DNA of 32,000 nucleotides from Dehalococcoidia bacterium (GTDB taxonomy: Bacteria > Chloroflexota > Dehalococcoidia > UBA2979). Position numbers and translations under genes: made by a program. Shown piece after piece: positions 909 through 25,300 of the stretch. Location of the stretch: assembly GCA_963667515.2 (NCBI GenBank), contig CAXXXY010000006.1, forward strand, positions 80,531 to 112,530. The letters are read 5' to 3'. The stretch's first letter is position 1; each line of letters starts with the position of its first letter. The notes under the pieces were generated by a model, which was not told where the DNA came from, made no database searches, and was given only the letters and a program-made list of their open reading frames with translations.

Positions 909-1158
909 CAGCGTTCCGCTGCACCTTGACGGCTGCCGCTCCTCGAAGAGAGCCGCGCGCCGGTCCCGTCCGCACGGCGTCGTTGCTTGGCCCTCGAGCC
1001 CGCCTCTCGACCGCCTGAGCATCCCCGACACCGCGAGCAGCAGCGGCAGCCCCTCGAGTCCAGTGGAACGCTGGCCCTCGAGCCCGCCTCTCGCCCGCCC
1101 GAGCATCCCCGACGCCGCGAGCCGCAGCGGCAGCCCCTCGAGTCCAGCGGAACGCTGG
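909..1158. repeat. Dispersed inverted-repeat element, locus 1 (one reverse arm plus two tandem 84-bp units carrying forward arms)
   Basis: Reverse arm 'CAGCGTTCCGCTG-CACCTTGAC-GGCTGCCGCTCC' at 909-942, directly after the yggT stop. Tandem 84-bp units at 989-1072 and 1073-1156 each end in the forward arm 'CAGCGGCAGCCCCTCGAGTCCAG(T/C)GGAACGCTG' (1041-1073, 1125-1157). Confidence 0.85.
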
Positions 1159-1252
1159 CGCTGGTGATGGGGGGCACAGTGCTCGGCGGCGCGCGGCGCG
1201 ATCGTGGATGGGCGCCTTCCACCCGAGCCGTTGCCGCGAAGGAGAGCCGCCG

Positions 1253-1827
1253 ATGGTGCAGGTCGTCGAGCAGATCCGGGTCGAGGCGCCGAGCGAGCGC
1301 GTGTGGGCGGTGCTCGCGGACCTCGGCGGCGTCGCCGAGTGGAACCCCACCGTCGACCACGCCGTCGCCACCTCGGAGGCGAGCGGCGGGCTGGGCGCGG
1401 CGCGATCTGCGCCGTCGGAGGCATGGGCACCGTCGAGGAGACGGTGGTGGCGTGGGACGAGGGTCGCGAGATGCTCTACGAGGTCGAGGGCGCGGCGATG
1501 ATGCGTCGGATGCGCGCCGGCTTCACGCTGGCGCCCGTCGAGGCGGGGGCCGCGACGCTCGTCACGATGCGCGGGGACTTCGCGATGCGCGGCGGGCCGC
1601 TGGGTGCGCTGATGGCGACGACGGTGGGCCGACGCAAGCTGCGCGGCACGATGCGCAGCGTGCTCGCCGGCCTGCGCGCGCACGTGCAACGTTACGTTGC
1701 ATCCGAGGGGCTGCCGCTCCTACGAGAGGGCCCGCCACCCGGTCGCCCGAATGCTCCCAACCGCCGAGCAGAAGCGGCAGCCACTCGAGTCCAGCGGAAC
1801 GCTGGGCGGAGCGCTGGCGTTGGTTAG
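1253..1827 (+). pseudogene. SRPBCC (START/polyketide-cyclase-like) family protein, frame-disrupted
   Basis: ATG 1253 follows the RBS 'GAAGGAGAG'. The N-terminus 'MVQVVEQIRVEAPSERVWAVLADLGGVAEWNPTV' is in frame 2. The family continuation 'ICAVGGMGTVEETVVAWDEGREMLYEVEG..FTLAPVEAG..TLVTMRGDF' is in frame 1, so there is a 1-nt shift near 1403-1406. The open frame then reads through repeat locus 2 to TAG 1825-1827. Confidence 0.7.
1686..1804. repeat. Dispersed inverted-repeat element, locus 2 (119 bp, one inverted arm pair)
   Basis: Reverse arm at 1686-1729: 'GCAACG-TTA-CGTTGC-ATCCGAGG-GGCTGCCGCTCC..'. Forward arm at 1768-1804: '..AGCGGCAGCCACTCGAGTCCAGCGGAACGCTG'. Confidence 0.85.
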
Positions 1828-2222
1828 CCGCTCGTGAGGGCGTCGGCGCCGGCCTGAGCCGCGAGCTCGTCGTTGGCGGCGGAGCTGCCGCCCGCGCCGA
1901 TCCCGCCCACGAGCTCGCCGCGCACGCGGATCGGCACGCCGCCCTGCGAGCGCACCAGCCGTCCGCCGTGCAGCTCGGCCGTCGCCAGCGCCACCTGCTC
2001 CGACACCTCGATCGCGCCGCTCGGCACGCCGAAGAGCGCAGCGGCGCGGGCCTTCCCCGTGGCCACGTCGGCGGCAAAGGCGCGCGTGCCGTCCATGCGT
2101 GCCGACGCCACCGTGTAGCCGCGATCGTCGACGACGGCGATGCCGAGCCGCGCGTCGAGATCGCGCGCCCGCTCGATCGCGGCGCGCAGCGCGCGCTCCG
2201 CCTGCTCGTAGCTCAGCGCCAT
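1824..2222 (-). CDS. GlcG/HbpS-like (DUF336) putative heme-binding protein
   Basis: 132 aa, ATG at 2222, TAA at 1824-1826. 'GIAVVDDRGYTVASARMDG..SQGGVPIRVRGELVGGIGAGGSSAANDELAAQAG' matches the GlcG/DUF336 pattern. Confidence 0.8.
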   Translation of the reverse strand: MALSYEQAERALRAAIERARDLDARLGIAVVDDRGYTVASARMDGTRAFAADVATGKARAAALFGVPSGAIEVSEQVALATAELHGGRLVRSQGGVPIRVRGELVGGIGAGGSSAANDELAAQAGADALTSG

Positions 2223-2376
2223 CGCGCCTCCCCTCGCCGCTCGCCGCTGCGCGCACGGTGCCAGCCGCGACGTGCCTCGTCCATGGCCCGCGCGCCCCGC
2301 AGCCAACGGCGAGGAATCCGAATCGCGCCGACGCTCGTTCACCCACTGCACCCACCCGCAGGGAGGGGATCCTTTT

Positions 2377-2942
2377 ATGGCAAGCGAAACACGGCGCCGC
2401 GCCGTCCGCTGGGGGCCGCGCTCTTCGTGGCGCTCGGACTCACGGCGATCCCGTTGACCGCGTTCGCGCAGCAGGGGGCGAGCGTCGACGTCGCGCTCGC
2501 GCGCTTCAGCGTGACGCCGAGCGTGCAGTCGGTCGCGCCGGGATCCGTCACGTTCGACGCCGCCGGCAACTTCCACCAGCTCACGGTGATCCGCACGGAC
2601 CTCCAGCCCGATGCGCTCCCCCAGTCGGGGGACGCTGTGGACCTGAGCGGCCTCGACGTGATCGGCGCGACGGATGTGCTGCGGGACGGCGCGACAGCGC
2701 AGGTGAGCGCGGACCTCGCAGCGGGCAGCTACGTCCTGATCTGCAACGTGCCCACCCACTACGCCCAGGGGATGCGGACCGCCTTCACGGTGTCCTCGCA
2801 GGTCACCCCGCCGGCCGCCGGGAACGCCGCCATCGCGTCGAGCGCGACGTCGGGCGGCAGCTCGACGGCGCTCGCGGCGCTGCTGCTCGCGGTCGCGGTC
2901 GGCGGGCGCGCGCTGACGTCGGCCAACGAGCGGCGAGCCTAG
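2377..2942 (+). CDS. Secreted/membrane-anchored cupredoxin (type-1 blue-copper) domain protein; apparent 1-nt frameshift just after the start
   Basis: ATG 2377 has a good RBS (GGGAGGGGA, 7-nt spacer) and gives 'MASETRRRAV' in frame 1. The signal peptide and domain ('LGAALFVALGLTAIPLTAFAQQ..GNFHQLTV..YVLICNVPTHYAQGM..') are in frame 3, which has no start codon of its own. His..Cys-x4-His-x4-Met copper ligands and a C-terminal hydrophobic anchor are present. Confidence 0.7.
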
Positions 2943-2993
2943 CTCGCGCCGAGCGCGGGCACCGCGGGTGAGGAGGCGCGGTCGCGGGCAGCG

Positions 2994-4060: not shown

Positions 4061-4553
4061 CCGGCCATCGTCCGACTCGCCCGCACCAGCGCCCCCTCAA
4101 CTCGCCGCACGCGCGACCGACGATCGGGGGGAGACCCCCCGCACCGCCCTCGCGGGTACGGCGCGTCGGGGCTCATCGACAAGGGCAAACCCGTCGAAAG
4201 GCGGGGGCGCAAAGGCACGGGCCTACACCCCCGCGGGGGGCACGGTCGCCGGCCTGCCGAAGGAGCCGCGCGTGCCCCGGTCACCGCTCCGCGCTCGCGC
4301 GAGGTCGCTCCCGCCGCCCGCCTTCGAGCTGCCCGCTCACGCGGTCCGCGCGCCGGCCCCGGAGCCGCGGCGCGCCCTCGCACGCCCGCGACACGACGCG
4401 CTCCCGACCGGCTCGCCCCCGCGGCAGCGAGGCTAGCCGCCGCGGCACAGACGCTCGAGAGAGGGTGGGCTGGGCCCGGACCGCGCCGACACTCAGGTGC
4501 GCGCGGCCGGGCCTCACGGCCTCCTTCAGACGTCCGTGCTCGCGCGTCTCTGC

Positions 4554-4841
4554 TCAGGCGTCACCGCGGATCACCTCCTCGCGCGGCGGGCTGTAGATGC
4601 CGAGGTAGGTCACGGGCGTCAGCGCCTCCATCTGGTGACGCACGCCCGGCGGGATGCGCGCCACGGTGCCCGGCCCCGCCTCCCGCGTCTCGCCGCCGAC
4701 GGTGAAGCGCGCGCGCCCCGCCAGCAGGTGCACGAGCTGCTCCTGCGGATGCGCGTGATCCTGGCTCGTCCCCGCCTCGCGCTCCACGTGCACGAGCATC
4801 ACGTTCTCGCCCACCACCAGCCGCCGGCGCCGACCCGGCAT
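4554..4841 (-). CDS. Cupin-domain protein (start uncertain)
   Basis: '..GENVMLVHVEREAGTSQDHAHPQEQLVHLLAGRARFTVGGE..PGTVARIPPGVRHQ' is a cupin_2 pattern. The frame stays open upstream to beyond 5048 and encodes cupin-like 'YFHDLAEVGAQE', but it has no ATG/GTG/TTG, so the true N-terminus is unclear. Confidence 0.7.
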   Translation of the reverse strand: MPGRRRRLVVGENVMLVHVEREAGTSQDHAHPQEQLVHLLAGRARFTVGGETREAGPGTVARIPPGVRHQMEALTPVTYLGIYSPPREEVIRGDA

Positions 4842-5049
4842 CTCCTGCGCACCGACCTCGGCCAGGTCGTGGAAGTAGCCGCTCCCCTCGCGCCTCCGAT
4901 CCTCGAACGCCTCGTCGCCGCGCCCACCCGGGCTCGGCGCGCCGACGATACCGCGGCGGCGGCGCGGCGCACCTCGGCGCGCGGATGCGGCGTCGAGGCG
5001 TTCGAGGGCGGGGCGATCGAGCGCGCGGCGGTCGAGGGGCAGTGCTAGC

Positions 5050-6099
5050 TGTACTACCCAGGAAGGTTGTTCACAGGCGGGAGGCGGGGACGGCCCCGCC
5101 GACGCCGCCGTGCGGTCGGCGGTGATTGTAGCGGTAGAGCCAGCGTGGGAGCTGGCGCAGCCGCTCGGCGTTGGAGCGGTAGGGGCGGGCGTAGGCCCAC
5201 TCGTTCTGCAGGATCTGGATGAAACGCTCGGCTTTGCCGTTCGTCTGCGGGCGGTAGGGCCGCGTGTGCGACAGCCGCACGTCTGCGGCAGCGGCGGCGC
5301 CGTGGAAGCTGCGGGCGACGGTGTAGGCCTTCGCGTTGTCGGTCAGGACCCGGCGCACGCGCACGCCACGCCGGCGGAAGGCCGCGAGCGCCTGCTCGAG
5401 GAAGGCGGCGCAGCTCGCGCCACGCTCGTCGGGCAGGACGGAGACGTAGGCGTAACGGCTGTGGTCGTCGACGGCGACGTGTAGGTACTCCAGCCCCAGC
5501 GAACGCCGCGAATGCGGCCCGGAGCGCGTCTCGGCGAAGCCAGACGCCATTCGCTTGCCGCCGCCCTCGGGGACGCGCCCGAGCTTCTTCACGTCGAGAT
5601 GCAGCAGGTCGCCGGGGGCGTCGTGCTCGTAGCGGACCGGCTCCCGGGTGACGCGGTGCAGGCAGTCGAGCCGGTTGAGGCCGCGGCGCCGCAGCACGGC
5701 GTAGACCGTGGAGCGGGCGACCCCGAGCGCCCACTGGATGCGATGCGGCCCGAATCCCTGCGTGCGTCGCACGGCGCAGATGCGTCGCTCCAGCTCGGGC
5801 GGCGTGCGCCGAGGATGCGCGCGCGGGGCGGAGCTGCGGTCCTCGAGCCCTGCCGCTCCCTCCGCCCGGAAGCGCCCCAGCCACTTGGCAACGGTGTGGC
5901 GGGAGACGCGGAAGTGGCGAGCGACCTCAGCCTGGGGCCAGCCGGCGTCCACTTCCCGCACGAGCTCGAGTCGGGTCAGCGGCGTCAGCCGCGCGTTACG
6001 ATGGGCCATGAGGGTGTCCTCTCCTCGCTACTGCCGTGCTGTCACACACAGCAGCGGGCGAGGCCCCTCATCCTGTCAACAACCTACGTGGGAACTACA
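5050..6099 (-). mobile_element. IS481-family insertion sequence, copy 1 (1050 bp)
   Basis: Imperfect 28-bp terminal inverted repeats: left TGTACTACCCAGGAAGGTTGTTCACAGG, right (reverse complement) TGTAGTTCCCACGTAGGTTGTTGACAGG. Flanked by a perfect direct repeat GCTAGC (5044-5049 and 6100-6105). Single DDE transposase ORF. Confidence 0.9.
5071..6009 (-). CDS. IS481-family DDE transposase
   Basis: 312 aa. N-terminal HTH ('MAHRNARLTPLTRLELVREV..'), then integrase-like core 'LLHLDVKKLG..', 'VLTDNAKAY..', 'YRPQTNGKAERF', typical of IS481/IS3-like transposases. Confidence 0.92.
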   Translation of the reverse strand: MAHRNARLTPLTRLELVREVDAGWPQAEVARHFRVSRHTVAKWLGRFRAEGAAGLEDRSSAPRAHPRRTPPELERRICAVRRTQGFGPHRIQWALGVARSTVYAVLRRRGLNRLDCLHRVTREPVRYEHDAPGDLLHLDVKKLGRVPEGGGKRMASGFAETRSGPHSRRSLGLEYLHVAVDDHSRYAYVSVLPDERGASCAAFLEQALAAFRRRGVRVRRVLTDNAKAYTVARSFHGAAAAADVRLSHTRPYRPQTNGKAERFIQILQNEWAYARPYRSNAERLRQLPRWLYRYNHRRPHGGVGGAVPASRL

Positions 6100-6100
6100 G

Positions 6101-7147
6101 CTAGCCGGCGGCGACGGGCTCGCTCGCGGCGGCCGCGCCCGCAGCGACCATCCGGCGGCGGATCGCCGGCGCCAGCGAGTCTGCGAGCGCGCGGTGGCCC
6201 GCGGCGGTGGGGTGCACGTCGACGGGGAAGCGGAAGCCGCGCCGCGTGGCACGCGGATAGCGCAGCAGGTCGGGCAGCGGGTCGTGCACGGCGAGGGCGG
6301 GCGGGCGCTCCAGCTCCGCGAAGCGCGCGCGGTAGCCGGAAGGCGAGGCGACCTCGTCCATGTGCTGCGCGAGCAGCAGCGGCACCACCAGCAGCGGCGC
6401 GCTCGACTCGGCGGCCCAGCGCTCGAGGATCGCTCGCATCAGCAGCCACGACGGCTCGTCGGCGCGCTGGTACTGCCAGTCGGGGTAGGCGCCCGTGACG
6501 CGCCTCGCCAGCCGCGACGCGCGCGGCCCCAGCCGGTAGACGAGGTCGCGCAGACGGCCGCGAGACGGCGCGCCCGAGGGGTACGGCGCGTCGCCCGCCG
6601 CCAGCGAGGCCGGGTCGATCGGGTCAGCCGGCACCGGCACCTGGCGCAGCGCCAGCGACCCATCGTCCTCGCGGGTGAAGTAGGGACGCGCGAAGAGGCG
6701 GTAGCCCGTCTCCGTGGGCGCCGCGAACTTCATCGTGCTGGCCACGATGCGCGCGATGTTCTCGACCCAGATCGCGACGACCACGAGATCGTGCTCGATC
6801 CCCCGCGCCAGCTCGCGGTAGGCGAGGTACTGCTGATCGGTGCCGCTGCCCGAGATGCCGAAGTTGTAGACCTCGAGGCCCGGCGTGCCGGCCTCCAGGA
6901 CGTCGCCGTCGCGCTTCGCGTTGCTGACGCCGTCGCCCACCGTGAAGGAGTCGCCGAAGAGCAGCACGCGGTAGGTCCCCGGCGCCTTCTCGGCTGTGTA
7001 CTCGCGGTCGGAGCGCAGCCCCATCGCGTTGGCGCACAGCAGGTAGCCGCCGCCCTCGTGGGGGGCGCGCGTGCGCAGACCGGGCGCGAAGGTGTGCCCG
7101 ATGACGGGGTGATAGCGGAAGTGGTCGCGCGTGCCGAGGCTCGCCAT
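6101..7147 (-). CDS. SGNH/GDSL-family hydrolase
   Basis: 348 aa. ATG at 7147 with RBS GGAGGA. 'VLLFGDSFTVGDG' (block I), 'NFGISGSGTDQ' (block II), 'DVHPTAAGH' (block V). The TAG stop (6101-6103) lies inside the IS target duplication. Confidence 0.8.
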   Translation of the reverse strand: MASLGTRDHFRYHPVIGHTFAPGLRTRAPHEGGGYLLCANAMGLRSDREYTAEKAPGTYRVLLFGDSFTVGDGVSNAKRDGDVLEAGTPGLEVYNFGISGSGTDQQYLAYRELARGIEHDLVVVAIWVENIARIVASTMKFAAPTETGYRLFARPYFTREDDGSLALRQVPVPADPIDPASLAAGDAPYPSGAPSRGRLRDLVYRLGPRASRLARRVTGAYPDWQYQRADEPSWLLMRAILERWAAESSAPLLVVPLLLAQHMDEVASPSGYRARFAELERPPALAVHDPLPDLLRYPRATRRGFRFPVDVHPTAAGHRALADSLAPAIRRRMVAAGAAAASEPVAAG

Positions 7148-8405: not shown

Positions 8406-8408
8406 CTC

Positions 8409-9061: not shown

Positions 9062-9496
9062 CTACAGCCCGCTGCGCCCCGGAGGGGCGGGCCGTCGCGC
9101 CGGCGGCCGCACCCGGCGCCACAGCAGCGCCGCGAGCAGCACAGCCCCGCCGAGCTGGAGCGCCGCCGAGCCCCAGCGCACGGGGATCGGCGCCCCGATC
9201 ATGCCGCCGAAGGCGAGGTCGGTGACCGCGCGCAGCAGCAGGCCGCCGTTCAGCGCCGCCCACCCGGCGAGCACGAAGCGCGGCGCGGCGACCGTGCCCG
9301 GCAACCGCGGGAACATCCACCACGCGACGCCGATCACCGTGTTGAGCAGCCAGCCGACGAGCAGCAGATGCGTGTGCGAGACGCGGCGCCCGTGCGTGAG
9401 CCTCGAGGGCTCGGCGAGGCCGATCGCGCCGATCACCATGCCCGCCACGAAGAACGCGAGCCCGGTGCGCAGGAAGAGGATCGCGAGCCCGCTCAC
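9062..9496 (-). CDS. Hypothetical 4-TM integral membrane protein
   Basis: 144 aa, four hydrophobic segments, His/Trp-rich motif 'HTHLLLVGWLLNTVIGVAWWMFPR'. No family assignment possible from memory. Confidence 0.55.
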   Translation of the reverse strand: MSGLAILFLRTGLAFFVAGMVIGAIGLAEPSRLTHGRRVSHTHLLLVGWLLNTVIGVAWWMFPRLPGTVAAPRFVLAGWAALNGGLLLRAVTDLAFGGMIGAPIPVRWGSAALQLGGAVLLAALLWRRVRPPARRPAPPGRSGL

Positions 9497-9560
9497 GGCG
9501 GCGCGCGCCGGCCATCGAGCGCCGGGCGCGGCGGCCGGCGCTCGATGGCCGGCGCGCGCG

Positions 9561-10329
9561 CTAGAGACGGGCGTTCGCGATCGCGATGTGGCGGCGCGTG
9601 TCGCGCTCTAGCGTCGCCGCCTGCTTGGGGCGTGACCTCGTCGCAGAGCCAGTCCCAGTGCAGCGTCACTTTGGCGCCCGGCGCGAGCGCGTCGAGGTAA
9701 CCGCGGCCGCCCGCGGCGCGCCGCGCCTCGCGCGCCTCGAGCGCACCCAGCGCGAGGCGGCCCGCGGCCAGCAGCAGCGGCCGCGCGCGCACGCGCGCGC
9801 GCTCCACGTCGAGTGCCTCGACCACCCCCCAGCCGATGCGGCAGCGGTCCAGCGCCTGCACGTCATCGGGCAGCGCCCCCGCGCGCGTGCTCACGTCCAG
9901 CACGTGGAAGGAGTGGTGCGGCCGCGCGCCCGCCGGCACCTGCCCCGCGAGGTGGCGCAGCAGCCGCGGGGGAACGCGCCGCCCCACGCTCTCCTCGACG
10001 AAGGCGTGGAAGCCGCGCGCGTCGACACGACGCGTGAGCGCGTCGCCCAGCCAGTACGCCTCCACGACGCGCGCGTCGAAGGGGTCGGCGATCCCGCTGC
10101 CGCGCGCGATGACGCCGAGGTAGGGGTACGCCGCCTGGAACTGGCGGATCAGCGGATCGATGCCGGGGTCCGCCTCGTCGGCGACGCAGTAGGCGAAGAG
10201 CTCGTCGTCGTCGGGGCCGCCGCAGTAGCCCAGCCGGTTGGGTGCGATGGCGTAGCGCGCGAAGAGCAGCCGGCCGTCGCGCGCGGGTGCGAGCTGCGGC
10301 GTCGCCTCGAGCGTCGCGCCGTCAGGCAG
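9561..10329 (-). pseudogene. Conserved hypothetical protein with 'APNRLGYCGGP' Cys motif; start codon unclear and C-terminal frameshift
   Basis: The frame is open from just beyond the DMT stop ('..LLFARYAIAPNRLGYCGGPDDDELFAYC..AYPYLGVIARGSG..EAYWLGD..HWDWLCDEV') but has no ATG/GTG/TTG before GTG 10065. After 'DEVT' an extra base in the run at 9627-9630 breaks the frame. The plausible ending 'KQAATLERDTRRHIAIANARL*' stops at 9561-9563. Confidence 0.5.
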
Positions 10330-11371
10330 CGCGCGGCCCCGACCCGGAGCGCAGCGCGCCCGCGGCTGAGGCGAGCGCGGGCGCGGGCGCCCGAGCCGCC
10401 GCGGGGCCCCCGGCGCGAGCGCCGCGGCGCCCGAGCTCGGCGGCCGCGAGCCAGAGCGCGGCGGCCACCGCGATCAGCGCGAGGCCGGCGGCCTGCTCGG
10501 CGCTGTAGCTGCGCGAGCCCGCCGCGGCATGCAGCGCCGAGGTCACCACCGAGCTCACGACGAGGATCGACGCCACCATCGTGGCGGGGGCGCGGCGCAG
10601 CGCAGCGTAGTAGCCGCCGACGTAGCCCAGCAGCAGCGCCGCCGTCGCCAGCACCCAGCCCCACTGCGCGGGGCCGAGCGCCGCCAGGTCGTCGGCGCGG
10701 CCGCTCGTCGCGAGGAAGGCGAGCATCACCAGCACGCCGAAGCCCATGCGGCCCAGCGCCGCCAGCGGCACCGAGAGCCCGCCCGCGAGGAAGCGTCGCG
10801 CCAGCACCGCCTCCGCCGCCCACAGCAGCGTGGCGGCCAGCGTCAGCGCCTCGGGCCGGCCCAGCGACAGGCTCGACGGCCGGCCCGCCAGCGCGAGGTG
10901 CCCCACCAGCAGCACCGCGAGCGCCGCCAGCGGCAGCGCGCCAAGCCGCTCGCGCAACAGCGGCAGCGCCAGCAGCGCGACCCAGATCACCAGCGTCTTG
11001 TGCATGAACGCCGCGCTGGGCGCCGCGGCCGCGCGCAGCCCCTCGAAGAAGAGCAGGAAGGGGATGCCGCCTCCGACCAGCCCCAGCGTCGCGAGCCGTG
11101 CCCAGCCGCCGCGCCCCAGCCCGCGCAGCTCGGCGGGGCGCACCGAGGCCGCCACGACGCCCACCAGCGCCACCACGGCGTTCTTCGCCGTCGTGAAGAC
11201 GAAGGGGTCGGGCAGCTCGCGCACGGCGAACGAGTTCACGTAGATCGAGACGCCCGAGAGCAGCGCCGTGGCGAGCGCGATCGCCGCGCCCGCCCGCACG
11301 AGCTCGCCACGCGCCGCGCCGTGGCGCTCGCGCTCCCGCCCACGCTCGCCCACCGTCGCGTACAGCCTCAT
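10322..11371 (-). CDS. EamA/DMT-superfamily permease
   Basis: 349 aa, about 10 TM segments with two EamA-like halves. Its ATG (11371) overlaps the hypC stop (ATGA). RBS GGAGGCG. Confidence 0.8.
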   Translation of the reverse strand: MRLYATVGERGRERERHGAARGELVRAGAAIALATALLSGVSIYVNSFAVRELPDPFVFTTAKNAVVALVGVVAASVRPAELRGLGRGGWARLATLGLVGGGIPFLLFFEGLRAAAAPSAAFMHKTLVIWVALLALPLLRERLGALPLAALAVLLVGHLALAGRPSSLSLGRPEALTLAATLLWAAEAVLARRFLAGGLSVPLAALGRMGFGVLVMLAFLATSGRADDLAALGPAQWGWVLATAALLLGYVGGYYAALRRAPATMVASILVVSSVVTSALHAAAGSRSYSAEQAAGLALIAVAAALWLAAAELGRRGARAGGPAAARAPAPALASAAGALRSGSGPRAA

Positions 11372-11619
11372 CGGTTCGCCTCCGCTCCACGGCTCGCCGC
11401 CTCCGCCGCGGCCCCGAGCTCCGCCAGCAGCGCGTCCAGCTCGCGCGCCTCCTCGGCGGTCGCGCGCTCGACGGCCATGCCCAGCGCGACGAGCACGTGG
11501 TCGCCCGGTGCGAGGCCCAGCAGCGCCAGCGCCGACACCTCGCGCGCCACGCCCCCCACCTCGACGAGGGCGCGCGCACCCTCGGCGCGCAGCACGCGGC
11601 CCGGTAGCGCCGTGCACAT
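11368..11619 (-). CDS. hypC: Hydrogenase maturation chaperone HypC/HybG/HupF family
   Basis: 83 aa starting 'MCTALPGRVL..' (N-terminal Cys after Met) and '..GDHVLVALGMAVERATAEEA', as in HypC. The start overlaps the hypA-like stop (TGATG). Confidence 0.88.
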   Translation of the reverse strand: MCTALPGRVLRAEGARALVEVGGVAREVSALALLGLAPGDHVLVALGMAVERATAEEARELDALLAELGAAAEAASRGAEANR

Positions 11620-11860
11620 CAGGACGGTCCCGGCACCACGACGCTCTCGAGCGCCACGCCGCCCGTCGCGGCCGAGCGGATCTCGATCGCCGCGCCCTCG
11701 GCGGGCGTCCCCGCGGCCGCAGCGAGCAGCGAGAGCTCGAGCGCCCCCGCCTCGAAGCCTCCCTCGGGGCCCAGCCGCAGCCGCAGCGCCGCCAGCTCGC
11801 CGCCCCCGCCGCCTCCACCGCGCGCGTCACGATGCGACGCGCGACGCCGAGCTCGTGCAT
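11619..11860 (-). pseudogene. hypA: HypA-like nickel-insertion protein lacking the zinc-finger domain, frame-disrupted
   Basis: 'MHELGVARRIVTRAVEAAG' (MHE nickel-binding N-terminus) from ATG 11860. The rest, 'ELAALRLRLGPEGGFEAGALELSLLAAAAGTPAEGAAIEIRSAATGGVALESVVV', is in another frame, with the shift at the C5/G5 run 11803-11807. There are no CxxC..CxxC motifs. Confidence 0.65.
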
Positions 11861-12404
11861 CGCAGCTCCTCCTCCACCGCCTCCAGCAGCGGCCCAGCGC
11901 GCGCTCGCACGACCGCGAGAGCGGCGCGCCGTGCTCCACCGCCTCGGGCTCGACGCCGTAGATCACGAGCGAGGCGGGGAGCCGGCCGAGCGCGCGCGCC
12001 AGATCGACGGCCGCCGCCGCGCCCAGCCCATGCGTCGAGGCGCCGCCGCGCGCCAGCCGCCCCGCGAGCCGCCCCGGCAGCGGCGCCGCGCGCGCGTCGA
12101 CGCGGTGCACCGTCCCCGGCGGCGCACCCGTGCGCACCGCGTCCAGCAGCAGCACGCTCGGCTCCCCGTCCCACGCCGCCAGCAGCCCCGCCGCGTCGCC
12201 GTCCGCGAGCAGCACCCGCGCCGCCACGCCGGGGCGCTGCGCGAGCCGCGCGCGCAGTCGCTCCGCCGCGACGAGGCCGACGGCGTCGTCGCCGCGCAGC
12301 CGGTTGCCGACGCCGATCACGAGCGGCGGCGCTGCGCCCCGATCGCGCGCCGCCGCCACGCCTCGACGGCGCGCCTCGCCGCGCCTCGTCACGCGCGCGG
12401 CCAT
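11827..12404 (-). pseudogene. [NiFe]-hydrogenase maturation endopeptidase (HyaD/HycI/FrhD family), frame-disrupted near the C-terminus
   Basis: 'PLVIGVGNRLRGDDAVGLVAAERL..LLLDAV..GAPPGTVHRVD..STHGLGAAAAVDLARALGRLPASLVIYGVEPE' are protease family motifs. The ATG (12404) overlaps the large-subunit stop. The shift is near 11915, after which 'VVRARAGPLLEAVEEEL' continues to TGA 11827. Confidence 0.75.
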
Positions 12405-13728
12405 CAGCCCCGTTCCACAGTGAGGTCGAGGAAGTGCGTGGCGCAGGAGATGCACGGGTCGAAGGCGCGGATCAGCTGCTCGCAGCCGTGCGTCAGCTCC
12501 GGCTCCGGGATGTCGAAGCGCGGCGCGGCGAGGGCGGCGAGATCCTCCTCGATCGCGCGCTGGTTCTGCGAGGTCGGCGGCACGATCTTCGCGTCGACGA
12601 TCGTCCCCTCGGCGTCGAGCGTGTAGCGGTGGTAGAGGAGGCCGCACGGCGCCTCGGTCACGGCGTAGCCCTCCCGGCGAGGCCGCTCCCGGCGCGCGGC
12701 TCGGCCTCGGCGAAGGGGGGCCGCGGCTGCTCGTACTCCGCGATCAGCCGCAGCGCCTCCTCGACGGCGAAGAGCAGCTCCGGCGCGCGCACCACGATCG
12801 AGCGGAACGGGTTGCGGAGCGGTGGCGCCACGCCCGCCACCTCGGCGGCCTCGCGCACGAGCGCCGGCAGCCGCTCGTAGTTGAAGGCGTAGCGCGCCAG
12901 CGGCCCGACGAGGTAGCTACGCTCCCCGTCGAGCAGCGAGTGCAGCGTCGTAGTGTACCGGAGCTACCGCTCCTCGAAGCGGTCGTCGTACTGCGGCGCC
13001 GCGACGTCGAGGCCGTCGCTCGAGACGATGCGCCCCTCGTTCATCGGGTACTCGGCGGGGTGGCGCAGCGCGACGAGCAGGTACTCCGCCTCGAACTCCG
13101 GCGTCGGCAGCGCCGCGGTCCAAACGACCAGCGCGAGCGCCTCTTCGCGCGCGCGCTCCAGCGTGGCGGCGAGCGGGCGCAGCTCGGCGGGGCGCGGCAC
13201 GCGATGGAAGCCGCCGACGCGCACGTTGATCGGGTGCACCTCGCGGCCGCCGACCAGCGCCATCACGGCGTTGCCCGCCGCCTTCAGCGCCAGCCCGCGC
13301 TCGACGACCTGCGGGTGGTCGGCGGCCATCGCGATCGCGTCTGGGTAGCCGAGGAAGTCCGGCGCGTGGAGCATCGTGACGTGCAGCGCGTGGCTCGCGA
13401 TCCATTCGCCGCAGTAGAGCGGGCGGCGCAGCTCGCGGACGCCGGCGGGCGGCACGAGGCCCAGCGCGTCCTCCATCGCGTGCACCGCGCTCATCTGGTA
13501 GGCGACGGGGCAGATGCCGCAGATGCGCGCCGTGATGTCGGGCGCCTCCGAGTAGTGCCGCCGCCGCAGGAAGCCCTCGAAGAAGCGCGGCGGCTCGAAG
13601 ATGGCGAGCTGCACCTCCTCGACGCGGCCGCCCGCGACGCGCAGGCGCAGCGATCCCTCGCCCGCCATCCGCGGCAGGTAGTCGACGCGGATCTCGCGCG
13701 TCCCGCTCTCGCGCGTGGCGTCGGTCAC
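12404..13728 (-). pseudogene. [NiFe]-hydrogenase large (alpha) subunit, group 3 type; in-frame TAG plus one frameshift
   Basis: GTG 13728 overlaps the small-subunit stop (GTGA). N-terminal Ni motif '[10 protein letters not shown]', central 'VGPLARYAFNYERL', C-terminal 'DPCISCATH'. Interrupted by TAG at 12964-12966 in the same frame, and by a 1-nt shift near 12674. Confidence 0.85.
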
Positions 13729-14482
13729 GGCGCCCCCTCGAGGCGCTCGGCCGCCGCGCGGAACGGCTCGGCGCCCGCGTGGAAGCTGCGGAACGCGCGC
13801 ACGAGCTCGCGGTCGCTCGCGCCCAGTGCGCGCCACCCCTCGGACAGCGACGCGGTGCTCGCCGTCTCGGCGGGGCCGTAGCAGCCGTAGCAACCGCGGT
13901 CGTAGCCCGGGCAGAGCGCGCCGCAGCCCGCGTGGGTGACGGGGCCCACGCAGACCGAGTGCTCCTCGATCCGCGGGCGCCGGCCCGCGAGGTAGGCGCT
14001 CATCACCTCGGCGAGCTGCCCCACGTCGATCGGGCAGCCGCGCAGCTCGAAGTCGACGGGCACGTGCTCGGAGATCGGCGTGGAGCGGTCGAGCGTGCGC
14101 ACGTACTCCGGCCGCGCGTAGACCACCGCGGCGAGCTCCCGCATGTCGACGAAGTTGCGCAGCGCCTGGATGCCGCCCGAGATGGCGCAGGCGCCGATCG
14201 TGACGAGCTACCGCGACTCCTCCCGCACGCGGTGGATGCGCCGCTCGTCCTCGGGCGTGGTGATCGAGCCCTCGACGAGCGAGAGGTCGTACGGCCCCGG
14301 CTCGGCGCGGCTGCTCGCCTCGGGGAAGTAGCGATCTCCACCTCGCGCGCCAGCGTCAGCAGATCGCGGTCGAGCGAGAGCACGGAGAGCTGGTAGCCGT
14401 CGCAGGAGGCGAACTTCCACACGGCGACGCGCGGCCGCCCTTCGCCTCGCCTGCGAGCCGTCACCACCGCGTGCGCGCTCAC
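13725..14482 (-). pseudogene. [NiFe]-hydrogenase small (delta) subunit, NuoB-like; in-frame TAG plus one frameshift
   Basis: GTG 14482 overlaps the gamma stop (GTGA). '[15 protein letters not shown]', '[39 protein letters not shown]', 'FELRGCPID', '[19 protein letters not shown]'. TAG at 14208-14210 in frame; shift near 14331. Confidence 0.85.
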
Positions 14483-15399
14483 AGCTCCGGCACCTCGAGG
14501 CAGCCGCCCAGCTCGGCGAACGAGAGCACCGGGCCGTCGCGGCAGACGAAGCTCTCGCGGAGCTGGCAGCGACCGCAGAGCCCCACGGCGCAGTGCATGT
14601 TGCGCTCCAGCGAGAGGTAGACGCGCTCCGGCGCGACGCCGCGCGCGGTGAGGTCGAGCGCGACCAGTGCATCATCATCTCGGGCCCGCAGACGAAGGCG
14701 ACGGCCTCGCGGGGCTCGAAGCGCGCGCGTCCGAGGTGCGCCGTGACCCAGCCGACGTCGCCGCGCCAGCGCTCGTCGGCGTGGTTCACCGTGACCAGCA
14801 CGTCGAGCTCCGGGTGGCGGCGCCAGCGCTCCAGCTCGCGGCGGAAGAGCAGCTCGCGCGGCGAGCTGGCGCCGTAGAGCAGCGTGGCGCGGCCGTAGCG
14901 CTCACGACGCTCGAGGATCGCGCGCAGCGCCGCCGCCAGCGGGGCGAGCCCCAGCCCGCCCGCGACGAGCAGCACGTCGGCGCCCTCCCCCTCGGCCTCG
15001 GCCTCGTCGAGCGGCCAGCCGCGCCCGAAGGGTCCGCACACCCCCACGGCATCGCCGCGCTCGAGGGCCCACAGCGCCTCGGTGACGGCGCCGACGGCGC
15101 GGATCGTGTGGCGAAGCGTGCCGCCCGGCTGCGTGGCGCTCGCCTCGGCGGCGCCCACCTGGGCCCGGCGCTCCCGGGCGCCGCTCACCGAGATCGGCGC
15201 CTCACCGACGCCCAGCGCGGTAAGGATCGTGAACTGCCCCGGCCGCACCTCGATCGGCGTCGCGGCCGGGCTCGAGCTCGAGCGAGCGCACGTCCGCCGT
15301 CTCGCGGCGCGTGCGGGCGATGCGCCAGATCGCGGGCAGCAGCGCCATCGTCGCGCCGGCCGGCGGAGAGGCTGGCGCGGGAGCCGCCAGCGCGCTCAC
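14479..15399 (-). pseudogene. Hydrogenase gamma subunit (FAD/NAD(P)-binding, PyrK/AsrB-like, with C-terminal Fe-S Cys cluster), two frameshifts
   Basis: '[27 protein letters not shown]' shifts (about 15268) to '[57 protein letters not shown]', which shifts (about 14670) to '[34 protein letters not shown]'. Candidate starts are GTG 15399 or ATG 15348. Confidence 0.75.
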
Positions 15400-15889
15400 G
15401 GCCGGGCTCGCGCGCGGGCGCCGCGCTCGCGGGCGGCGCGTAGAGGTGGAGCAACTGCAGCCGCGCCGCCTCCAGCCGCTGCGTCATGACCGCGACGAAG
15501 CGCGTGAGCAGCTCGTAGCCGAGCTCATGGTCGCCCGCGAACTTGCCGCGCAGGCAGGCGCCATCGAGCGCGACCACGCGCGTCAGCTCCAGCGCGCGCG
15601 CGTCGAAGCGCTGCACGTACGGCGGGACGATCCACGCCCAGCCGAGGATCTCGCCCTCGCCCAGCGTCTGCAGCGTGAGCCGCCCGCGGTCGGCGGCGTC
15701 CAGCTCGACGGCGACGCGGCCGTGGCGGATGAGGAAGAACTCGCGCGCGTCCTGGCCCTGGCGGAAGATCGTCTCGCCCGCGCGGTAGCGCGGGTTCGAG
15801 GCGCAGCCCGCGAGCAGCGCGATCTGCGCCTCGCTCATGCCGCGGAAGAAGGCGTGCTCGGCGAGGATGCCCTCGAGGCCGCGAATCAC
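15396..15889 (-). CDS. Cyclic-nucleotide-binding (CAP effector-type) domain protein embedded in the hydrogenase operon; 3' end uncertain
   Basis: GTG 15889 overlaps the beta stop (GTGA). '[77 protein letters not shown]' is a cNMP-binding fold. The printed frame has no stop until 15185. A GTGA start/stop overlap at 15396-15399 exists in a different frame, implying one more shift around 15400-15440. Confidence 0.7.
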
Positions 15890-17142
15890 GGCGCACCCTC
15901 CTCGCCCCGCGCGCCGCGACGCGCGCCCGCCGGCGGCGCCGCCCGCACCGGCATCGGCGCCGCGCGGATCGCCGCCGCCTCGTGCGTGATGTCGATGCCC
16001 ACGGGACACCAGGTGATGCAGCGCCCACAGCTGACGCGGCCCGAGCTGCCGAACTGGTCGATCCAGCTCGCGAGCTTGTGCGTCAGCCACTGCCGGTAGC
16101 GCGAGCGAGTGCTGCCGCGCACGTGGCCGCCGGCGAACGCGCTGAAGTCGAGGCTGAAGCAGGAGTCCCAGCGCCGCGTCCGCTCGACGTGGGCGCCCGT
16201 CAGGTCGCTCGTGTCGCTCACGGAGCTACAGAAGCAGGTGGGGCAGACCAGCGTCCAGTTGGTGCACGAGAGGCAGCGCGCGGCGACATCGTCCCAGCGC
16301 GGGTGCTCGGCGGCGGCGCGGAGCAGCTCGCGGATGCCCTTGGTGTCGAGCGAGCGGCCGAGCGAGACCGTCGTCGCCTTCACCACGGCGCGCGCTCGCT
16401 CGCGGTCCGCCGCCGTCGCCTCGCGGCGCGGCAGCCGCGCGAGCAGCGCGGAGCCGCGCTCGCTGCCCGCGCGCGCCAGCAGCTCGTGCGTGGCGCCGGC
16501 CTCGCGCCCCTCACCCGCCGGGGGCGTCAGCTCGGTGAGCGCCACGTCGAAGCCGTCCTCGACGCCGGGGCCCGCGTCCATGGAGGCGCAGAAGCAGGTG
16601 CCGCCCGCGACGGCGCACTCGACGGCGATCAGGAAGGCGCCCTCGCTCCGCCGCGCGTAGCCCGCGTCCACGTAGAAGCCGCCCGTGAAGACGCGGTCCT
16701 GCATCGCGATCGCGCGCAGCTCGCAGGCGCGCGCGCCGAGGAAGGCGTGGCGCGTCGCCTCGGGCGGCGGCGCCTCGACGGTCACGGCGTCGCCGTCGCG
16801 GCTCGCCTCCCGCAGCCGCTCGTGCGCGGGAAAGAGGAAGTGCTTCCACGAGTGCGGGCCGACGGCGTAGCCGAAGAGCGTCTCGTCGCCCCACCGCTCC
16901 AGGCGGTAGCGGCCCGGCTCCTGCCGGTCGCCCCAGCCCCGCGGCAGCTCGCCCGCGGAGTCGACGCGGTCGTAGACGATCGCGCCGTCGCGCACGGTGG
17001 GACCGACGACGGCGTAGCCATCCGAGCGTAGCGCCTCGATCAGCGCATCGAGCGCCCCGGGGTCGAGCACCCACGCGGCGGCGCTCTCGGCGAGGGGCTC
17101 GGCGATCGGCGTCTCGGCGGCCACGCTCCGCTCCCTCGGCAC
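15886..17142 (-). CDS. Hydrogenase beta subunit (4Fe-4S dicluster protein, AsrA/HydB-like)
   Basis: 418 aa, intact. '[10 protein letters not shown]', '[16 protein letters not shown]', '[16 protein letters not shown]' are Fe-S motifs. First gene of the minus-strand cluster. Confidence 0.8.
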
Positions 17143-17148
17143 AGGCGC

Positions 17149-17306
17149 CAGCGTTCCGCTGGACTCGAGGGGCTGCCGCTCCTGCCGGAGCAGCGCCGGT
17201 CGTTGCGCGCCCGCGCGGCGGGCCAGAGGGCTCGGCGAGCGGGCACCACCTAGGCGAGGCGAAACGCCAGCAGCAGCGGAAGCCCACCCGGTGCAGCGGA
17301 GCGCTG
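17149..17306. repeat. Dispersed inverted-repeat element, locus 3 (158 bp, one inverted arm pair)
   Basis: Reverse arm at 17149-17193: 'CAGCGTTCCGCTG-GACTCGAGG-GGCTGCCGCTCCTGC..'. Forward arm at 17268-17306: 'CAGCAGCAGCGGAAGCC-CACCCGGTG-CAGCGGAGCGCTG'. It fills the whole gap between the oxidoreductase stop (17308) and the hydrogenase start (17142). Confidence 0.85.
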
Positions 17307-17307
17307 C

Positions 17308-18417
17308 CTACGGCGCGATGCGTGCGCCCGTGACCGAGGACTCGCGGATGGCGTCCAGCACGCGCTGCGTGGCCGCGCCGTCCTCGAAGGAGGGGGCGGG
17401 CGAGCCGCCCTCGCGGATGCCGCGCTCGAAGTCGCGGAGCAGGAGGCGGAACGCCATCAGCCGGTTGTCCCGCTCGTCCTCGAACGGCACGAGGTCGGCG
17501 GGCATCGGCAGCTGCTCCAGCCGCCGGTCGCTCCCCCGGCCGCCGAGCACGACGCCATCCGGCTCCGGGTTCGGGCCGCGCTGCACCGCCTCCAGCACGC
17601 CGCCCGCGCCCACGAGGTGGATGCGCGCGCCGGTCGCGGGCGCGGCGGCGGAGGTCGCCGTCATCGTCGCGAAGGCCCCGGACTCGAAGCCCAGCGTGAA
17701 GGCGAAGGTGTCGTCGGCGTCGGCGGTAGCGGCGGCGCCCGTGTCCGGGTCGCGGCGCTCCGGGCGCGCCACGGTGAGCCGGCCGCTGACCTCGCGCACG
17801 TCGCCGAACCAGTGGCGCAGCCCATCGACGTAGTGCGAGCCGAGCGCGCCCAGCAGCCCGCCACCCTCGGCGGAGCGCGAGCCCCAGGCCAGCGGCGGCG
17901 GCTCCGCAGGCGCTGCACGTCCGATCAGCAGCTCGATCGAGGCGAAGCGCGGCTCCCCCACGAAGCCCTCGTCCAGCAGCCGGCGGATGTGCGCGCGCTG
18001 CGGGGCGTGCCGGAACTCGTGGGCGACCATCGCGGTGGGGCCGGAGGCGCGCGCCGCCTCGGCCATCGCGCTCGCCTCGGCGGCGTCGAGCGCGAACGGC
18101 TTTTCGCACAGCACGTGCTTGCCGGCGGCGAGCGCGGCCAGCGCCATCTCGCGGTGCGGCGCGGGCGGCGTGGAGATGGCCACGGCGTCGAGGTCGTCGC
18201 GGGCCACCAGCTCGCGCCAGTCCTCGTGCGGCGCGGACACGCCCAGGCGCTCCGCGGCCTCGCGCGTGCGCTCGGGCGAGCGCCCCCAGATCGCCGGCAC
18301 CTCCCAGCCCTCCGAGAGGAAGGCGGGGACGTGGACGGTGGCGCCGAAGCCCACCCCGATCACCCCGACACGCAGAGCGCTCACGCGCGGCAGTCTACGC
18401 CCTCCCTCCCGCGCCAC
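17308..18417 (-). CDS. Gfo/Idh/MocA-family NAD(P)-dependent oxidoreductase
   Basis: 369 aa. Rossmann N-terminus '[19 protein letters not shown]', '[10 protein letters not shown]' motif. The start could be the internal GTG about 18384. Confidence 0.82.
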
Positions 18418-18504
18418 GCGGAGCCCGGCCGGCGCCGACTGCTACGCTGTGCCTTCGAGGCCCCGCGGGCCGGTCAACCAGGCGAGCGCGACGAGGAGGC
18501 AAGC

Positions 18505-18900: not shown

Positions 18901-18948
18901 CGGCGGCCGTCTCGGCGGGACGCCGAGGGGCGAGGGCGAGGGGGGGCG

Positions 18949-20715: not shown

Positions 20716-20824
20716 CGGGCGCGGGCTCGTCGTCGAGCGCGCCCCCGCTCGCACCCCACGCGATGAGCGCCGCGGTCGCGACCACCGCCGAGGCGGTCAG
20801 CATCCCCCGCATCAGTCGAAGCAT
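20507..20824 (-). CDS. Hypothetical small protein with N-terminal signal/anchor helix
   Basis: 105 aa, 'MLRLMRGMLTASAVVATAALIAWGASG' followed by an acidic/Pro-rich region. Its TAG shares the CTAG palindrome (20507-20510) with the predicted stop of the convergent SBP gene. Confidence 0.45.
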   Translation of the reverse strand: MLRLMRGMLTASAVVATAALIAWGASGGALDDEPAPVTTVLQEFAPGSDVQSDIERDLLLDLLPMPPAGQDAAFAAPALPMSGDDAARHLGGHDDGTCPLGPGVI

Positions 20825-20921
20825 CCGGCTACCCTCCCGGCTCGCGAAAGCATACGTCGTGGAGCCGCTCAGCGGTTCTCGCCTCGCGACCTCGCCGCGC
20901 GACGGGGCGCCGCCGAGGGCG

Positions 20922-21466
20922 CTACGGCCCGCTCGACGGCGCGATCCCTGTGCGGTAGTTGGCCACGCGGTAGCGCTCCGGGTGCGCGAAGTCCGTCATC
21001 AGCACGATCTCCTCGAAGACATCGCTGAAGCCCTCAGCGCGCAGGCGGCGCGGGGTCATCGCCATGACGTAACGCTCGTAGTCCACCTCGAGGTTCGTGG
21101 GCTGCCCCCAGGCGCGCCCGCGCCGCTCGAGGAACTGCCGGATGCCGTCCGCGTCGCGCACCACCTCGACGTCGGCCTGCACCGTCACGTTGCGCGCGGC
21201 GCCGCCGCGCGGCCCGATCCCCTCGCCCGAGGTCTGCACCCACTGCATCGTCACGCGCGGGTTGTCGGCAAGGTGCCGCGACTTGAGGTCGCCCTCGCGC
21301 ACCGCCCGATGGTCCCGAGCCGCAGCCCGCTCTCGAAGCTCTCGACGAGGCAGCTCACCTGCCGCACGTAGGCGTCGCCGTAGCGGTTCACGGTGGTGAG
21401 GAAGCTCGTGACCCCCGGCTCGCGCGAGGAGATGAAGTCCCGGATCGCCGTCAGTCGCTCGTCCAT
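20922..21466 (-). pseudogene. Pyridoxamine-5'-phosphate-oxidase-like (PPOX/FMN-binding split-barrel) protein, frame-disrupted
   Basis: ATG 21466 (RBS GAAGGGGAG) gives 'MDERLTAIRDFISSREPGVTSFLTTVNRYGDAYVRQVSCLVESFESGLRLGTI'. The continuation 'AVREGDLKSRHLADNPRVTMQWVQ..VMAMTPRRLRAEGF' is in another frame, with the shift at the run 21305-21307. Confidence 0.65.
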
Positions 21467-21527
21467 CGCCGCTCCCCTTCGCCGGCACCCCGCTCGCGCG
21501 CCTCGCCGCCGTGCCCCGCGGCGCACC

Positions 21528-22382
21528 TTACGCGCTCTGCAGCCCATGCTCGCGCAGGAAGTCGAGCGTGACGCGCGCGAGCAGCTCCGGATTCTCGTTC
21601 GGAGTGAAGACGGCACGGCTCGGCACCAGCACCCCGCGACCGTCGGGCAGCGCCTCCACCACGCGCTCGTGCAGCGGGCGGATGCGGCTGTTGGTGCCGT
21701 GGATCACCAGCGCGGGCGACTGCACCAGCGGCAGCCGCTCCCAGATCGGGTAGCGGCAGATGGCGTGCGGCCCCGCCCCGCGCCAGCCCATGTGGCCGTA
21801 CGGGGAATCCGGCGCCGCCGCGTTGACGCGCAGCGTGTCGAGGTAGCGCTCGGCCGAGATGCGCAGGCTGGGGCTCGGGCCGAGCACGGCGAGGTCGGCC
21901 CACAGCTCGGGCAGGTGGCCGCCGTCCGCGCGCCGCGCACGGTAGAAGTGCCGGCCCTCGTGGAAGGCGCGGCCCTCGTCGTTGTTGTAGTCGTTGATCT
22001 CCTCGAGGATCAGCGCCGCCACGCGCTCCGGCCACTGCGCGGCGAGCTCGACGCCGACCACGGCGCCGGTGTGCGTCGCGAAGACGTTGGCGCGCTCCAG
22101 CTCCAGCGCCTCCATCGCCCACACCACCGCCTGCGAGAACTCGCGCACCGTCGAGTAGGGGACGGGCGGCCGGTCGGAGGCGCCGTAGCCGATGGTGCTC
22201 AACGCCATCGCGCGCACGCCCGCGCCCCCCGCGGCCGCGAGCTGCGGGAGCAAGTCGTCGTACATGGCGGCGGAGGTGGGCGTGGCATGCAGCAGGATCA
22301 GCGGGGCGCCCTGCCCCGCCTCCCGGCACTCCATGTAGCCGTGCGGCGTCTCCAGCAGCCGGCGGCGAATGCGCTCGACCAC
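21528..22382 (-). CDS. Alpha/beta-fold hydrolase family protein (atypical nucleophile elbow)
   Basis: 284 aa. 'PLILLHATPTSAAMY', 'GYGASDRP', 'VFATHTGAVVGVELAAQWPERVAALIL', 'ALVIHGTNS' follow the alpha/beta-hydrolase topology, but the G-x-S-x-G position reads A-T-H-T-G. Confidence 0.7.
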   Translation of the reverse strand: MVERIRRRLLETPHGYMECREAGQGAPLILLHATPTSAAMYDDLLPQLAAAGGAGVRAMALSTIGYGASDRPPVPYSTVREFSQAVVWAMEALELERANVFATHTGAVVGVELAAQWPERVAALILEEINDYNNDEGRAFHEGRHFYRARRADGGHLPELWADLAVLGPSPSLRISAERYLDTLRVNAAAPDSPYGHMGWRGAGPHAICRYPIWERLPLVQSPALVIHGTNSRIRPLHERVVEALPDGRGVLVPSRAVFTPNENPELLARVTLDFLREHGLQSA

Positions 22383-22392
22383 TTCGCTCCCT

Positions 22393-22647
22393 CAGCAACG
22401 TTCCGTTGCATCCCGGTGGCTGCAGCGAGCGTTCCGCTCGACCCTAGTGGCTGCCGCTCCTGCCCGAGGGTACGCGGGGCGCGTCGGTCGCCGCGACCTC
22501 GGCGGCGCGGCGTCGGCGGGCGCGCGGGCGGCGGGCGACTCGGAGGCCGCGCGCACGGCCGGCGCCTCGCCAGCCCTCTCGCAGGAGCGGCAGCCCCTCG
22601 AGTCGAGCGGAACGCTCGCTCGTCGAGTCGAGCGGAACGCTCGCTCG
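22393..22647. repeat. Dispersed inverted-repeat element, locus 4 (truncated arm + full inverted pair + 25-bp tandem duplication of the tip)
   Basis: Truncated reverse arm at 22393-22426 (hairpin GCAACG-TTC-CGTTGC). Reverse arm at 22427-22470 (GAGCG-TTC-CGCTC..GGCTGCCGCTCCTGC). Forward arm at 22574-22617 (..GAGCGGCAGCCCCTCGAGTCGAGCGGAACGCTC). 'TCGAGTCGAGCGGAACGCTCGCTCG' is duplicated at 22598-22622 and 22623-22647. Confidence 0.85.
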
Positions 22648-25299: not shown

Positions 25300-25300
25300 G

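Follow-up and report, generated by a model that had tools for sequence, protein, structure and literature searches.

The stretch of DNA analysed here comprises 32,000 nucleotides of contig CAXXXY010000006.1 (assembly GCA_963667515.2, positions 80,531 to 112,530), assigned to a Dehalococcoidia bacterium of the phylum Chloroflexota, and has a GC content of about 75%; we refer to the whole of it as the window. It contains four loci, E1 to E4, which are built from copies of one short palindromic repeat and lie next to yggT, the SRPBCC (Polyketide_cyc2) gene, a GFO/IDH/MocA gene and an alpha/beta hydrolase gene (Table 1). All copies in the window lie outside conserved coding sequence and three of the four loci are situated downstream of a gene end. 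An earlier note on this DNA had placed loci 1, 3 and 4 between genes and locus 2 in the tail of the SRPBCC open reading frame (ORF), and this is what we find, the repeat at locus 2 beginning right at the end of the protein domain.

Table 1. Repeat loci in the window, with their parts and genic context (strand in brackets).
Locus	Extent	Arms and other parts	Position relative to genes	Source
E1	908-1164	left arm 908-951 (+); core; right arms 1031-1074 (-) and 1115-1158 (-); at the right end an extra 6-nt half-stem, CGCTGG, 1159-1164	starts directly after the yggT stop TAA (906-908)	covariance model
E2	1686-1816	left arm 1686-1729 (+), variant with GCAACG stem and TTA loop; right arm 1762-1805 (-); partial outer tip 1805-1816, the twelfth tip, CAGCGCTCCGCC read on the minus strand	SRPBCC domain finishes at ORF residue 161 and E2 begins exactly there (nt 1686); final ~46 codons of the frame come from E2; overlapping convergent stop codons downstream, 1824-1827	
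E3	17148-17307	tips-outward heterodimer: 17148-17191 (+), CCAGCG type; 17264-17307 (-), GCAGCG type with CTC loop	second arm runs right up to the TAG that ends the minus-strand GFO/IDH/MocA gene (17308-17310)	
E4	22395-22643	truncated 31-nt unit 22395-22425, GCAACG type; full homodimer of CGAGCG type, 22426-22469 (+) and 22575-22618 (-), pair I1; truncated outer tip 22623-22643	between divergent genes: alpha/beta hydrolase (minus) and an ORF from ~22690 (plus)	

The earlier note had described a dispersed family of inverted repeats in which the structure of a tip hairpin is retained, and had listed eleven arm positions for it; the module was present at each of these when they were re-read, and both the number of tips and a covariance model confirm that the family is real. 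The 13-nt tip CAGCGTTCCGCTG has 11 matches in the window when up to two mismatches are allowed, compared to an expectation of 3.1 ± 1.9, and this number was reached in none of 100 shuffles; ten of the matches are inside the four loci, while that at 10150-10162 is a chance match. A covariance model of the arm (44 nt, built from 35 arms from the window and from metagenomes, run with filters off) identified nine full arms in the window, scoring 50–65 bits and all within the four loci, as well as two truncated arms (22395-22423 on the plus strand, 29.5 bits, and 22623-22643 on the minus strand, 23.6 bits). It detected no further arms in the window, the next hit scoring 18 bits. Repeat detection recovered arm families D2, D5 and D18 together with the inverted pairs I1, I3, I4, I7 and I12. 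In total the units amount to 11–12 copies per 32 kb window, in addition to the copies on approximately 20 metagenome contigs that are described below.

The conserved unit is approximately 32–44 nt long and begins with a 15-nt terminal hairpin, which consists of a 6-bp stem and a 3-nt loop (consensus CCAGCG-TTC-CGCTGG, with the loop TTC in 33 of 35 arms). After the hairpin come an A that hardly varies, seven variable nucleotides (often CTCGAGG) and then GGCTGCCGC, which usually continues as TCCTGC; the 3' part of the arm, GGCTGCCGC, is conserved as strongly as the palindrome itself. Four subfamilies can be recognised by the stem, which is perfectly paired in each, and by the bases that come after it (CCAGCG with ACTCGAGG, CGAGCG with ACC, GCAGCG with ACC, and GCAACG with ATCC). 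The stem variants reported earlier (GCAACG/CGTTGC, GAGCG/CGCTC and a T-G wobble at 1061-1073) are all present as described.

Among the 35 arms, 97.6% of tip stem cells are paired, three of the six pairs change on both sides and the covariation score is reached by none of 500 shuffles, which confirms the paired substitutions proposed in the earlier note; the paired changes track about four subfamilies, and thus represent few independent events, and the metagenome search pattern had the inner stem positions fixed. The same note had suggested that each locus folds into one long hairpin. Such a fold is energetically possible, and the folds of the loci are strong (z = -8.4 and -3.5), but it is not what has been conserved. 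In nine complete pairs each tip pairs with itself in 98.1% of cells (0 of 500 shuffles), whereas left and right tips pair with each other in 83.7%, the same as shuffled controls (296 of 500), and the variable outer positions are mismatched between the two tips in six and three of the nine elements. That left and right tips pair no better than controls is due to most pairs uniting arms of different subfamilies. As the tips covary with themselves and not with each other, the structure under selection is the small tip hairpin and not one long hairpin per locus, and the two arms of a pair are therefore independent units. Only in E4 do the two halves of an element stay clearly complementary beyond about 45 nt, and a second hairpin considered inside the arm was not significant (z = -1.3) and was unsupported by the alignment. 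As DNA, the tip folds into a stable hairpin whichever strand is considered (-6.3 to -6.6 kcal/mol). Its non-Watson-Crick pairs show no strand bias, with two G-T pairs on each strand, and are equally compatible with folding at the RNA level and at the DNA level.

The units are found in three arrangements: as singlets (L001, L048, L097 and L109; numbers with L denote loci found outside the window), as tips-outward, or head-to-head, inverted pairs (all four window loci, L004, L037, L086, L095, L036 and L122) and as head-to-tail stacks (E4, L036, L119, L024 and L126). No tips-inward (tail-to-tail) pair was seen in the window or in the metagenome loci. The pairs in the window are 119–193 bp long, and the cores separating the 38-nt arm cores measure 44–117 nt and are unrelated between copies in both length and content; a shared core was considered and rejected, the only similarity being weak and located beside the arms. 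No target-site duplications were found in the flanks of the nine complete elements. Wherever units are stacked, the truncated unit lies outside the full arm and in the same orientation, and at seven of the 14 stack junctions the joint follows directly after GGCTGCCG(C/G), with tip starts spaced 31, 31, 31, 31, 32, 32 and 33 nt apart; spacings at the remaining junctions range from 12 to 41 nt. A lone 6-nt half-stem precedes a full arm at several flanks (the right end of E1, L004, L024 and L036). The two right arms of E1 arose by an 84-bp tandem duplication (988-1071 and 1072-1155, family D3, 94% identical), which reiterates the right arm and part of the core.

The family extends beyond the window to about 20 metagenome contigs and one metagenome-assembled genome (MAG) from Lake Baikal. 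Using a strict pattern, a single contig was found among the GTDB species representatives (L001, in the Lake Baikal MAG, which is labelled Dehalococcoidia), and its unit stands directly after a TAG stop. A looser pattern matched at least 120 loci in metagenomes; among the matches listed about 20 are true members of the family, all of 69–75% GC, the others being chance matches in gut-bacterial coding genes, and the covariance model found 46 arms in metagenome loci, again among the matches listed. Several of the family-bearing contigs carry JGI identifiers (Ga0114993-Ga0115002, Ga0302123) of what we take to be aquatic samples. Many of the metagenome copies are found where a contig stops, as would be the case for repeats at which assemblies break, and most lie just downstream of a gene end, their neighbours being ordinary or housekeeping genes (the end of the ATP synthase epsilon gene, PHP domain, sigma-70, luciferase-like oxygenases, nitroreductase). 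A scan of viral contigs for the family pattern gave no matches. Homologues of the GFO/IDH/MocA protein encoded in the window come from MAGs of Dehalococcoidia or Chloroflexota.

Some of these contigs carry orthologues of the window loci. E3 is present at the orthologous site in L086, with the same two genes (GFO 84% identical, Fer4_22 73%), E4 has an orthologue in L122 at 235-425 (GFO 88%), and E1 and E2 both have orthologues around the SRPBCC gene in L126. The orthologous arms are 80–84% identical and the cores 55–70%, compared to 74–75% at 4-fold degenerate sites; purifying selection on the orthologous arms was considered, but at these values it is only marginal. The right arm of E1 has switched subfamily, being CCAGTG/CGCTGG in the window and CGAGCG/CGCTCG in L126, where three right arms stand in tandem instead of the duplicated arm of the window, and the right tip of E4 differs from its orthologue in L122 by a C-G to T-A double change. 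Beside its GFO stop L122 retains only a relic, and the more distant relatives L123, L124 and L125 are without the family, apart from decayed tips in L125. These alignments indicate that the loci persist over long periods by vertical descent while the arms within them are replaced or stacked.

The loci also coincide with differences in synteny, for example a hydrogenase-type segment of about 8 kb (9062-17147) which is absent in L122. This segment lies between the GFO and flavin reductase genes, has E3 at its GFO-side border, is at least partly present in L086 and contains Fer4_22, a cNMP-binding protein, an NAD-binding oxidoreductase, NiFe-hydrogenase and HycI-like ORFs, EamA and DUF6390.

At the end of the SRPBCC gene the stack is different in every orthologue. 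In the window a frameshift of 1 nt near 1400-1405 divides the gene (1253-1686) between two frames, and it appears in the source annotation as two fragments (P0129 and P0130), whereas its orthologues are intact, and it is thus either a pseudogene or the product of an assembly error. Searching with the spliced sequence, we found intact orthologues that are 83–87% identical, with the C-termini QRSAAL, ERVPAS or ERSARPS, residues which the tip itself encodes; the L126 orthologue terminates at a TAG inside the variable block of the arm.

REP (repetitive extragenic palindromic) families consist of stem-loop units that occur as singlets, as head-to-head dimers with 20–100-bp spacers, as clusters with tandem reiteration and as heterodimers; they lie within 20 bp of ORF ends, their own ends may give TAG stops, and intragenic units add residues to proteins (PMC3733652). 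We lean towards the view that the units described here are a lineage-specific, REP-like family of uncultured Chloroflexota of about 75% GC, handled by an HUH/Y1 enzyme of the type of the REP-associated tyrosine transposases (RAYTs). Under this proposal the small hairpin would form in single-stranded DNA and would be recognised by an HUH/Y1 enzyme of RAYT or IS200-IS605 type, which would cut at the hairpin's 5' foot and again some 17 nt downstream of it, and would re-join units without target duplication, often beside a copy already in place or immediately following a stop codon. A covarying stem with a conserved loop, the absence of target-site duplications, recurrent joints and insertion beside existing copies are all as expected of such an enzyme, and the units are probably handled by a single-strand HUH protein of the RAYT type. 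Where transcribed, the GC-rich hairpins would sit in the 3' ends of mRNAs, some of them supplying C-terminal codons and a stop. REPs are known to act secondarily on mRNA termination and stability (PMC3733652), and secondary effects on mRNA 3' ends are plausible here.

The closest parallels are with the REP dimers and REPINs of the GTAG and CGTC superfamilies (PMC3733652, PMC3116915), which are likewise short, dispersed, intergenic palindromic stem-loops forming singlets, outward dimers and clusters, with heterodimers common, positions near ORF 3' ends, TAG or C-terminal codons supplied to genes, no target-site duplication and long vertical persistence. The family here shares both the position of REPs (extragenic and near ORF 3' ends) and their arrangement in singlets, inverted dimers and clusters. 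It differs from them in being without the GTAG or CGTC tag, in its 6-bp stem, 3-nt loop and conserved single-copy tail of about 17–29 nt, in its host, an uncultured member of the Chloroflexota, and in having no linked RAYT gene. Nor do its pairs fit the definition of a REPIN, in which two inverted REPs make up a single hairpin and replicate together, with conserved spacing and related spacers, as they are spaced 44–117 nt apart around unrelated spacers, their left and right tips are uncorrelated and most are heterodimers; in REPINs of Pseudomonas the spacing is conserved, whereas here the spacers are conserved in neither length nor sequence. Of the label "REPIN/MITE-like" given in the earlier note, the first half holds to the extent that the pairs are REP-like head-to-head dimers, while comparison with MITEs (miniature inverted-repeat transposable elements) fails on the lack of target-site duplications, the single arms and the unrelated cores. 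The kind is likewise not as new as that note implied, since dimers with spacers, clusters and TAG-supplying ends have already been described for REPs (PMC3733652).

Atypical REP-like families with weaker hairpins and without the GT[AG]G tag are on record (PMC6006769). Among these kinds, the TIRYT "TIRtrons" (PMC3733652) and TnpAY1 classes 2.6 and 3 (PMC6006769) are repeat families of moderate to high copy number, associated with divergent Y1 enzymes, which resemble the present family in their lack of GT[AG]G, weaker or partial structure, dimers and clusters, and occurrence outside the Gammaproteobacteria, but they are defined by a flanking Y1 gene and their foot motifs, CnGA and GGGGWSAS, are not seen here. 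The GTAG-23 REPs of Chloroflexi (Thermomicrobium roseum and Roseiflexus castenholzii; PMC3733652) share the phylum, GC-rich hosts and clustered units, but are of other sequence, carry the GTAG tag, include intragenic units encoding, for example, GAAQPRTY, and are clustered in a few large blocks, whereas the family here is dispersed beside many housekeeping genes. The ends of IS200/IS605 elements have in common with our units a subterminal hairpin with a conserved loop, lack of target-site duplication, joints at a fixed distance from the hairpin and insertion 3' of a short target; however, the units here are without a transposase, and their paired hairpins are inverted copies of each other and not distinct left and right ends. 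The earlier note could place the element in no named family, and indeed no Rfam match was obtained either at the gathering threshold or at E<=5, while full-text searching of a literature library for the motif returned no paper containing it, only unrelated papers. As it is also unlike the GTAG-23 REPs, the sequence family appears to be undescribed.

A number of observations weigh against the REP-like interpretation with a RAYT-type enzyme. We detected no RAYT or Y1 gene in the window or in 775 kb of loci by tblastn with ten published RAYT/TIRYT queries, and Pfam searches of the window ORFs agree with the earlier statement that the window holds no RAYT or IS200/IS605 gene. The family lacks the conserved tag, GTAG or CGTC, that marks the two large REP superfamilies: in the 46 tip flanks the base 5' of the tip is only enriched for G (30 of 46), positions -2 and -3 are mixed, and (C/G)TAG stands at the foot in only six. 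A stem of 6 bp is also among the shortest of the known REP range. Conservation of the orthologous arms barely exceeds that of 4-fold degenerate sites, so that constraint on any one locus is weak. In favour of the interpretation, TAG lies directly at the foot of the hairpin in six of 46 arms, where its background frequency is 0.004 per position, and a further arm (w909) abuts the yggT TAA stop. However, TAG is also the commonest stop codon in this lineage (13 of the 24 Pfam-supported genes of the window), so that its presence at the hairpin foot is in part explained by abutting stop codons, and TAG as a candidate for a conserved tag is weakened for the same reason. At about 75% GC the dominant stop codon is usually TGA; TAG also ends 16 of 28 called genes in the relatives L122 and L123.

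The concentration of copies just downstream of gene ends (three of the four window loci and most of the metagenome copies) would equally be expected if these were RNA hairpins of use to the host, such as factor-independent terminators or 3'-end stabilisers, which are kept for the sake of each transcript and spread mainly by duplication or recombination, without a dedicated enzyme. The strong folds, the covarying stem and the secondary action known for REPs (PMC3733652) are all compatible with this. We nevertheless consider it unlikely, as E4 lies between divergent genes, no arm is followed by the T/U run of an intrinsic terminator and the non-Watson-Crick pairs show no strand bias. Moreover, terminators evolving locally would not be expected to form truncated head-to-tail stacks whose joint recurs, or to switch subfamily at orthologous sites, and the arms are barely more conserved than synonymous sites.

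These same stacks and switches, together with the heterodimers, would be explained by a homing palindromic system of uncultured marine and lake Chloroflexota, although we regard the existence of such a system as doubtful. In it an undescribed single-strand enzyme, be it a divergent HUH protein or another, would cut at the hairpin foot and again 31–33 nt further on, and would mainly replace or stack units of about 32 nt at fixed inherited loci rather than carry them to new sites. If true, homing would be a way of maintaining repeats that differs from the replication of REPINs.

It is quite improbable that a dimeric protein, for example a nucleoid, segregation or regulatory factor, binds the 15-bp palindromes as double-stranded DNA, with the rest of the arm hitch-hiking. 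Their perfect dyad symmetry, fixed 3-bp centre, nearly invariant inner CG/CG and intergenic position are what such a protein would need, but C-G to G-C swaps at stem positions 1, 2 and 4 preserve pairing while altering the bases that a protein would read, GGCTGCCGC is conserved as much as the palindrome, and known families of binding sites do not resemble a set of eleven within 32 kb that includes partial copies in stacks. Slightly less probable still is a classical MITE, that is, an element derived by deletion from an insertion sequence with a DDE transposase and mobilised at its terminal inverted repeats by cut-and-paste. The inverted arms of about 44 nt at both ends and the size of 119–193 bp are suggestive of one, and two IS481 copies, whose transposase genes are the only ones in the window, indicate active insertion sequences in this genome. 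Against this, none of the nine complete elements has a target-site duplication, many arms are single, internal sequence is unrelated between copies, most pairs mix subfamilies, and the matches listed for the metagenome loci include no longer element that has such ends; the IS481 ends (TGTACTACCC...) are unlike the arms, as had been stated in the earlier note. An origin as attC-like sites of an integron-type cassette system is barely credible: the conserved ends with a variable centre, the position directly after stop codons and the small SRPBCC gene bracketed by E1 and E2 recall such a system, but the SRPBCC gene follows yggT in relatives too and shares its flanking repeats with them, so that it was rejected as a mobile cassette, and the loci lie 5–16 kb apart among multi-gene housekeeping segments and in both orientations, without R''/R' core sites (RYYYAAC/GTTRRRY) and with no integrase gene in the window.

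REP and REPIN systems have mostly been studied in Proteobacteria, and if the REP-like interpretation is correct, a family in Chloroflexota extends the range of this kind of element. For specialists the points of note are the missing tag, the very short hairpin with its conserved tail, the heterodimers, the 31–33-nt joint and the turnover of arms. The family is also of use as a marker at which metagenome assemblies of the lineage break, accounts for unusual C-terminal extensions and stop codons where genes are called, as in the SRPBCC gene, and flags intergenic sites prone to rearrangement. Should the enzyme that maintains it be found, the 31–33-nt joint would provide a directly testable model of cleavage.

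Several further features of these sequences were observed. In L037 the two convergent genes flanking the repeat pair both end in the same nine bases, GAGCACTAG (539-547 and 725-733), so that in this single case the inverted identity runs past the tips into both coding ends. GC content shifts widely among close relatives, being 60% in L124 (GFO orthologue of 81% protein identity) and 68% in L125 compared to 73–75% in the window and L122, and these relatives of lower GC are without the repeat family. The two IS481-family copies (5050-6106 and 24250-25306) are in direct orientation, 19.2 kb apart, differ at 4–5 positions and are each bounded by CTAG, a known type of IS481 target; E3, E4 and some 18 kb of ordinary genes lie between them. 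Finally, a c-di-GMP-I-GGC riboswitch aptamer (RF03167) was identified at 4175-4262 on the plus strand, with 67.4 bits against a gathering score of 59, upstream of an ORF (4497-5048) which has no Pfam match.

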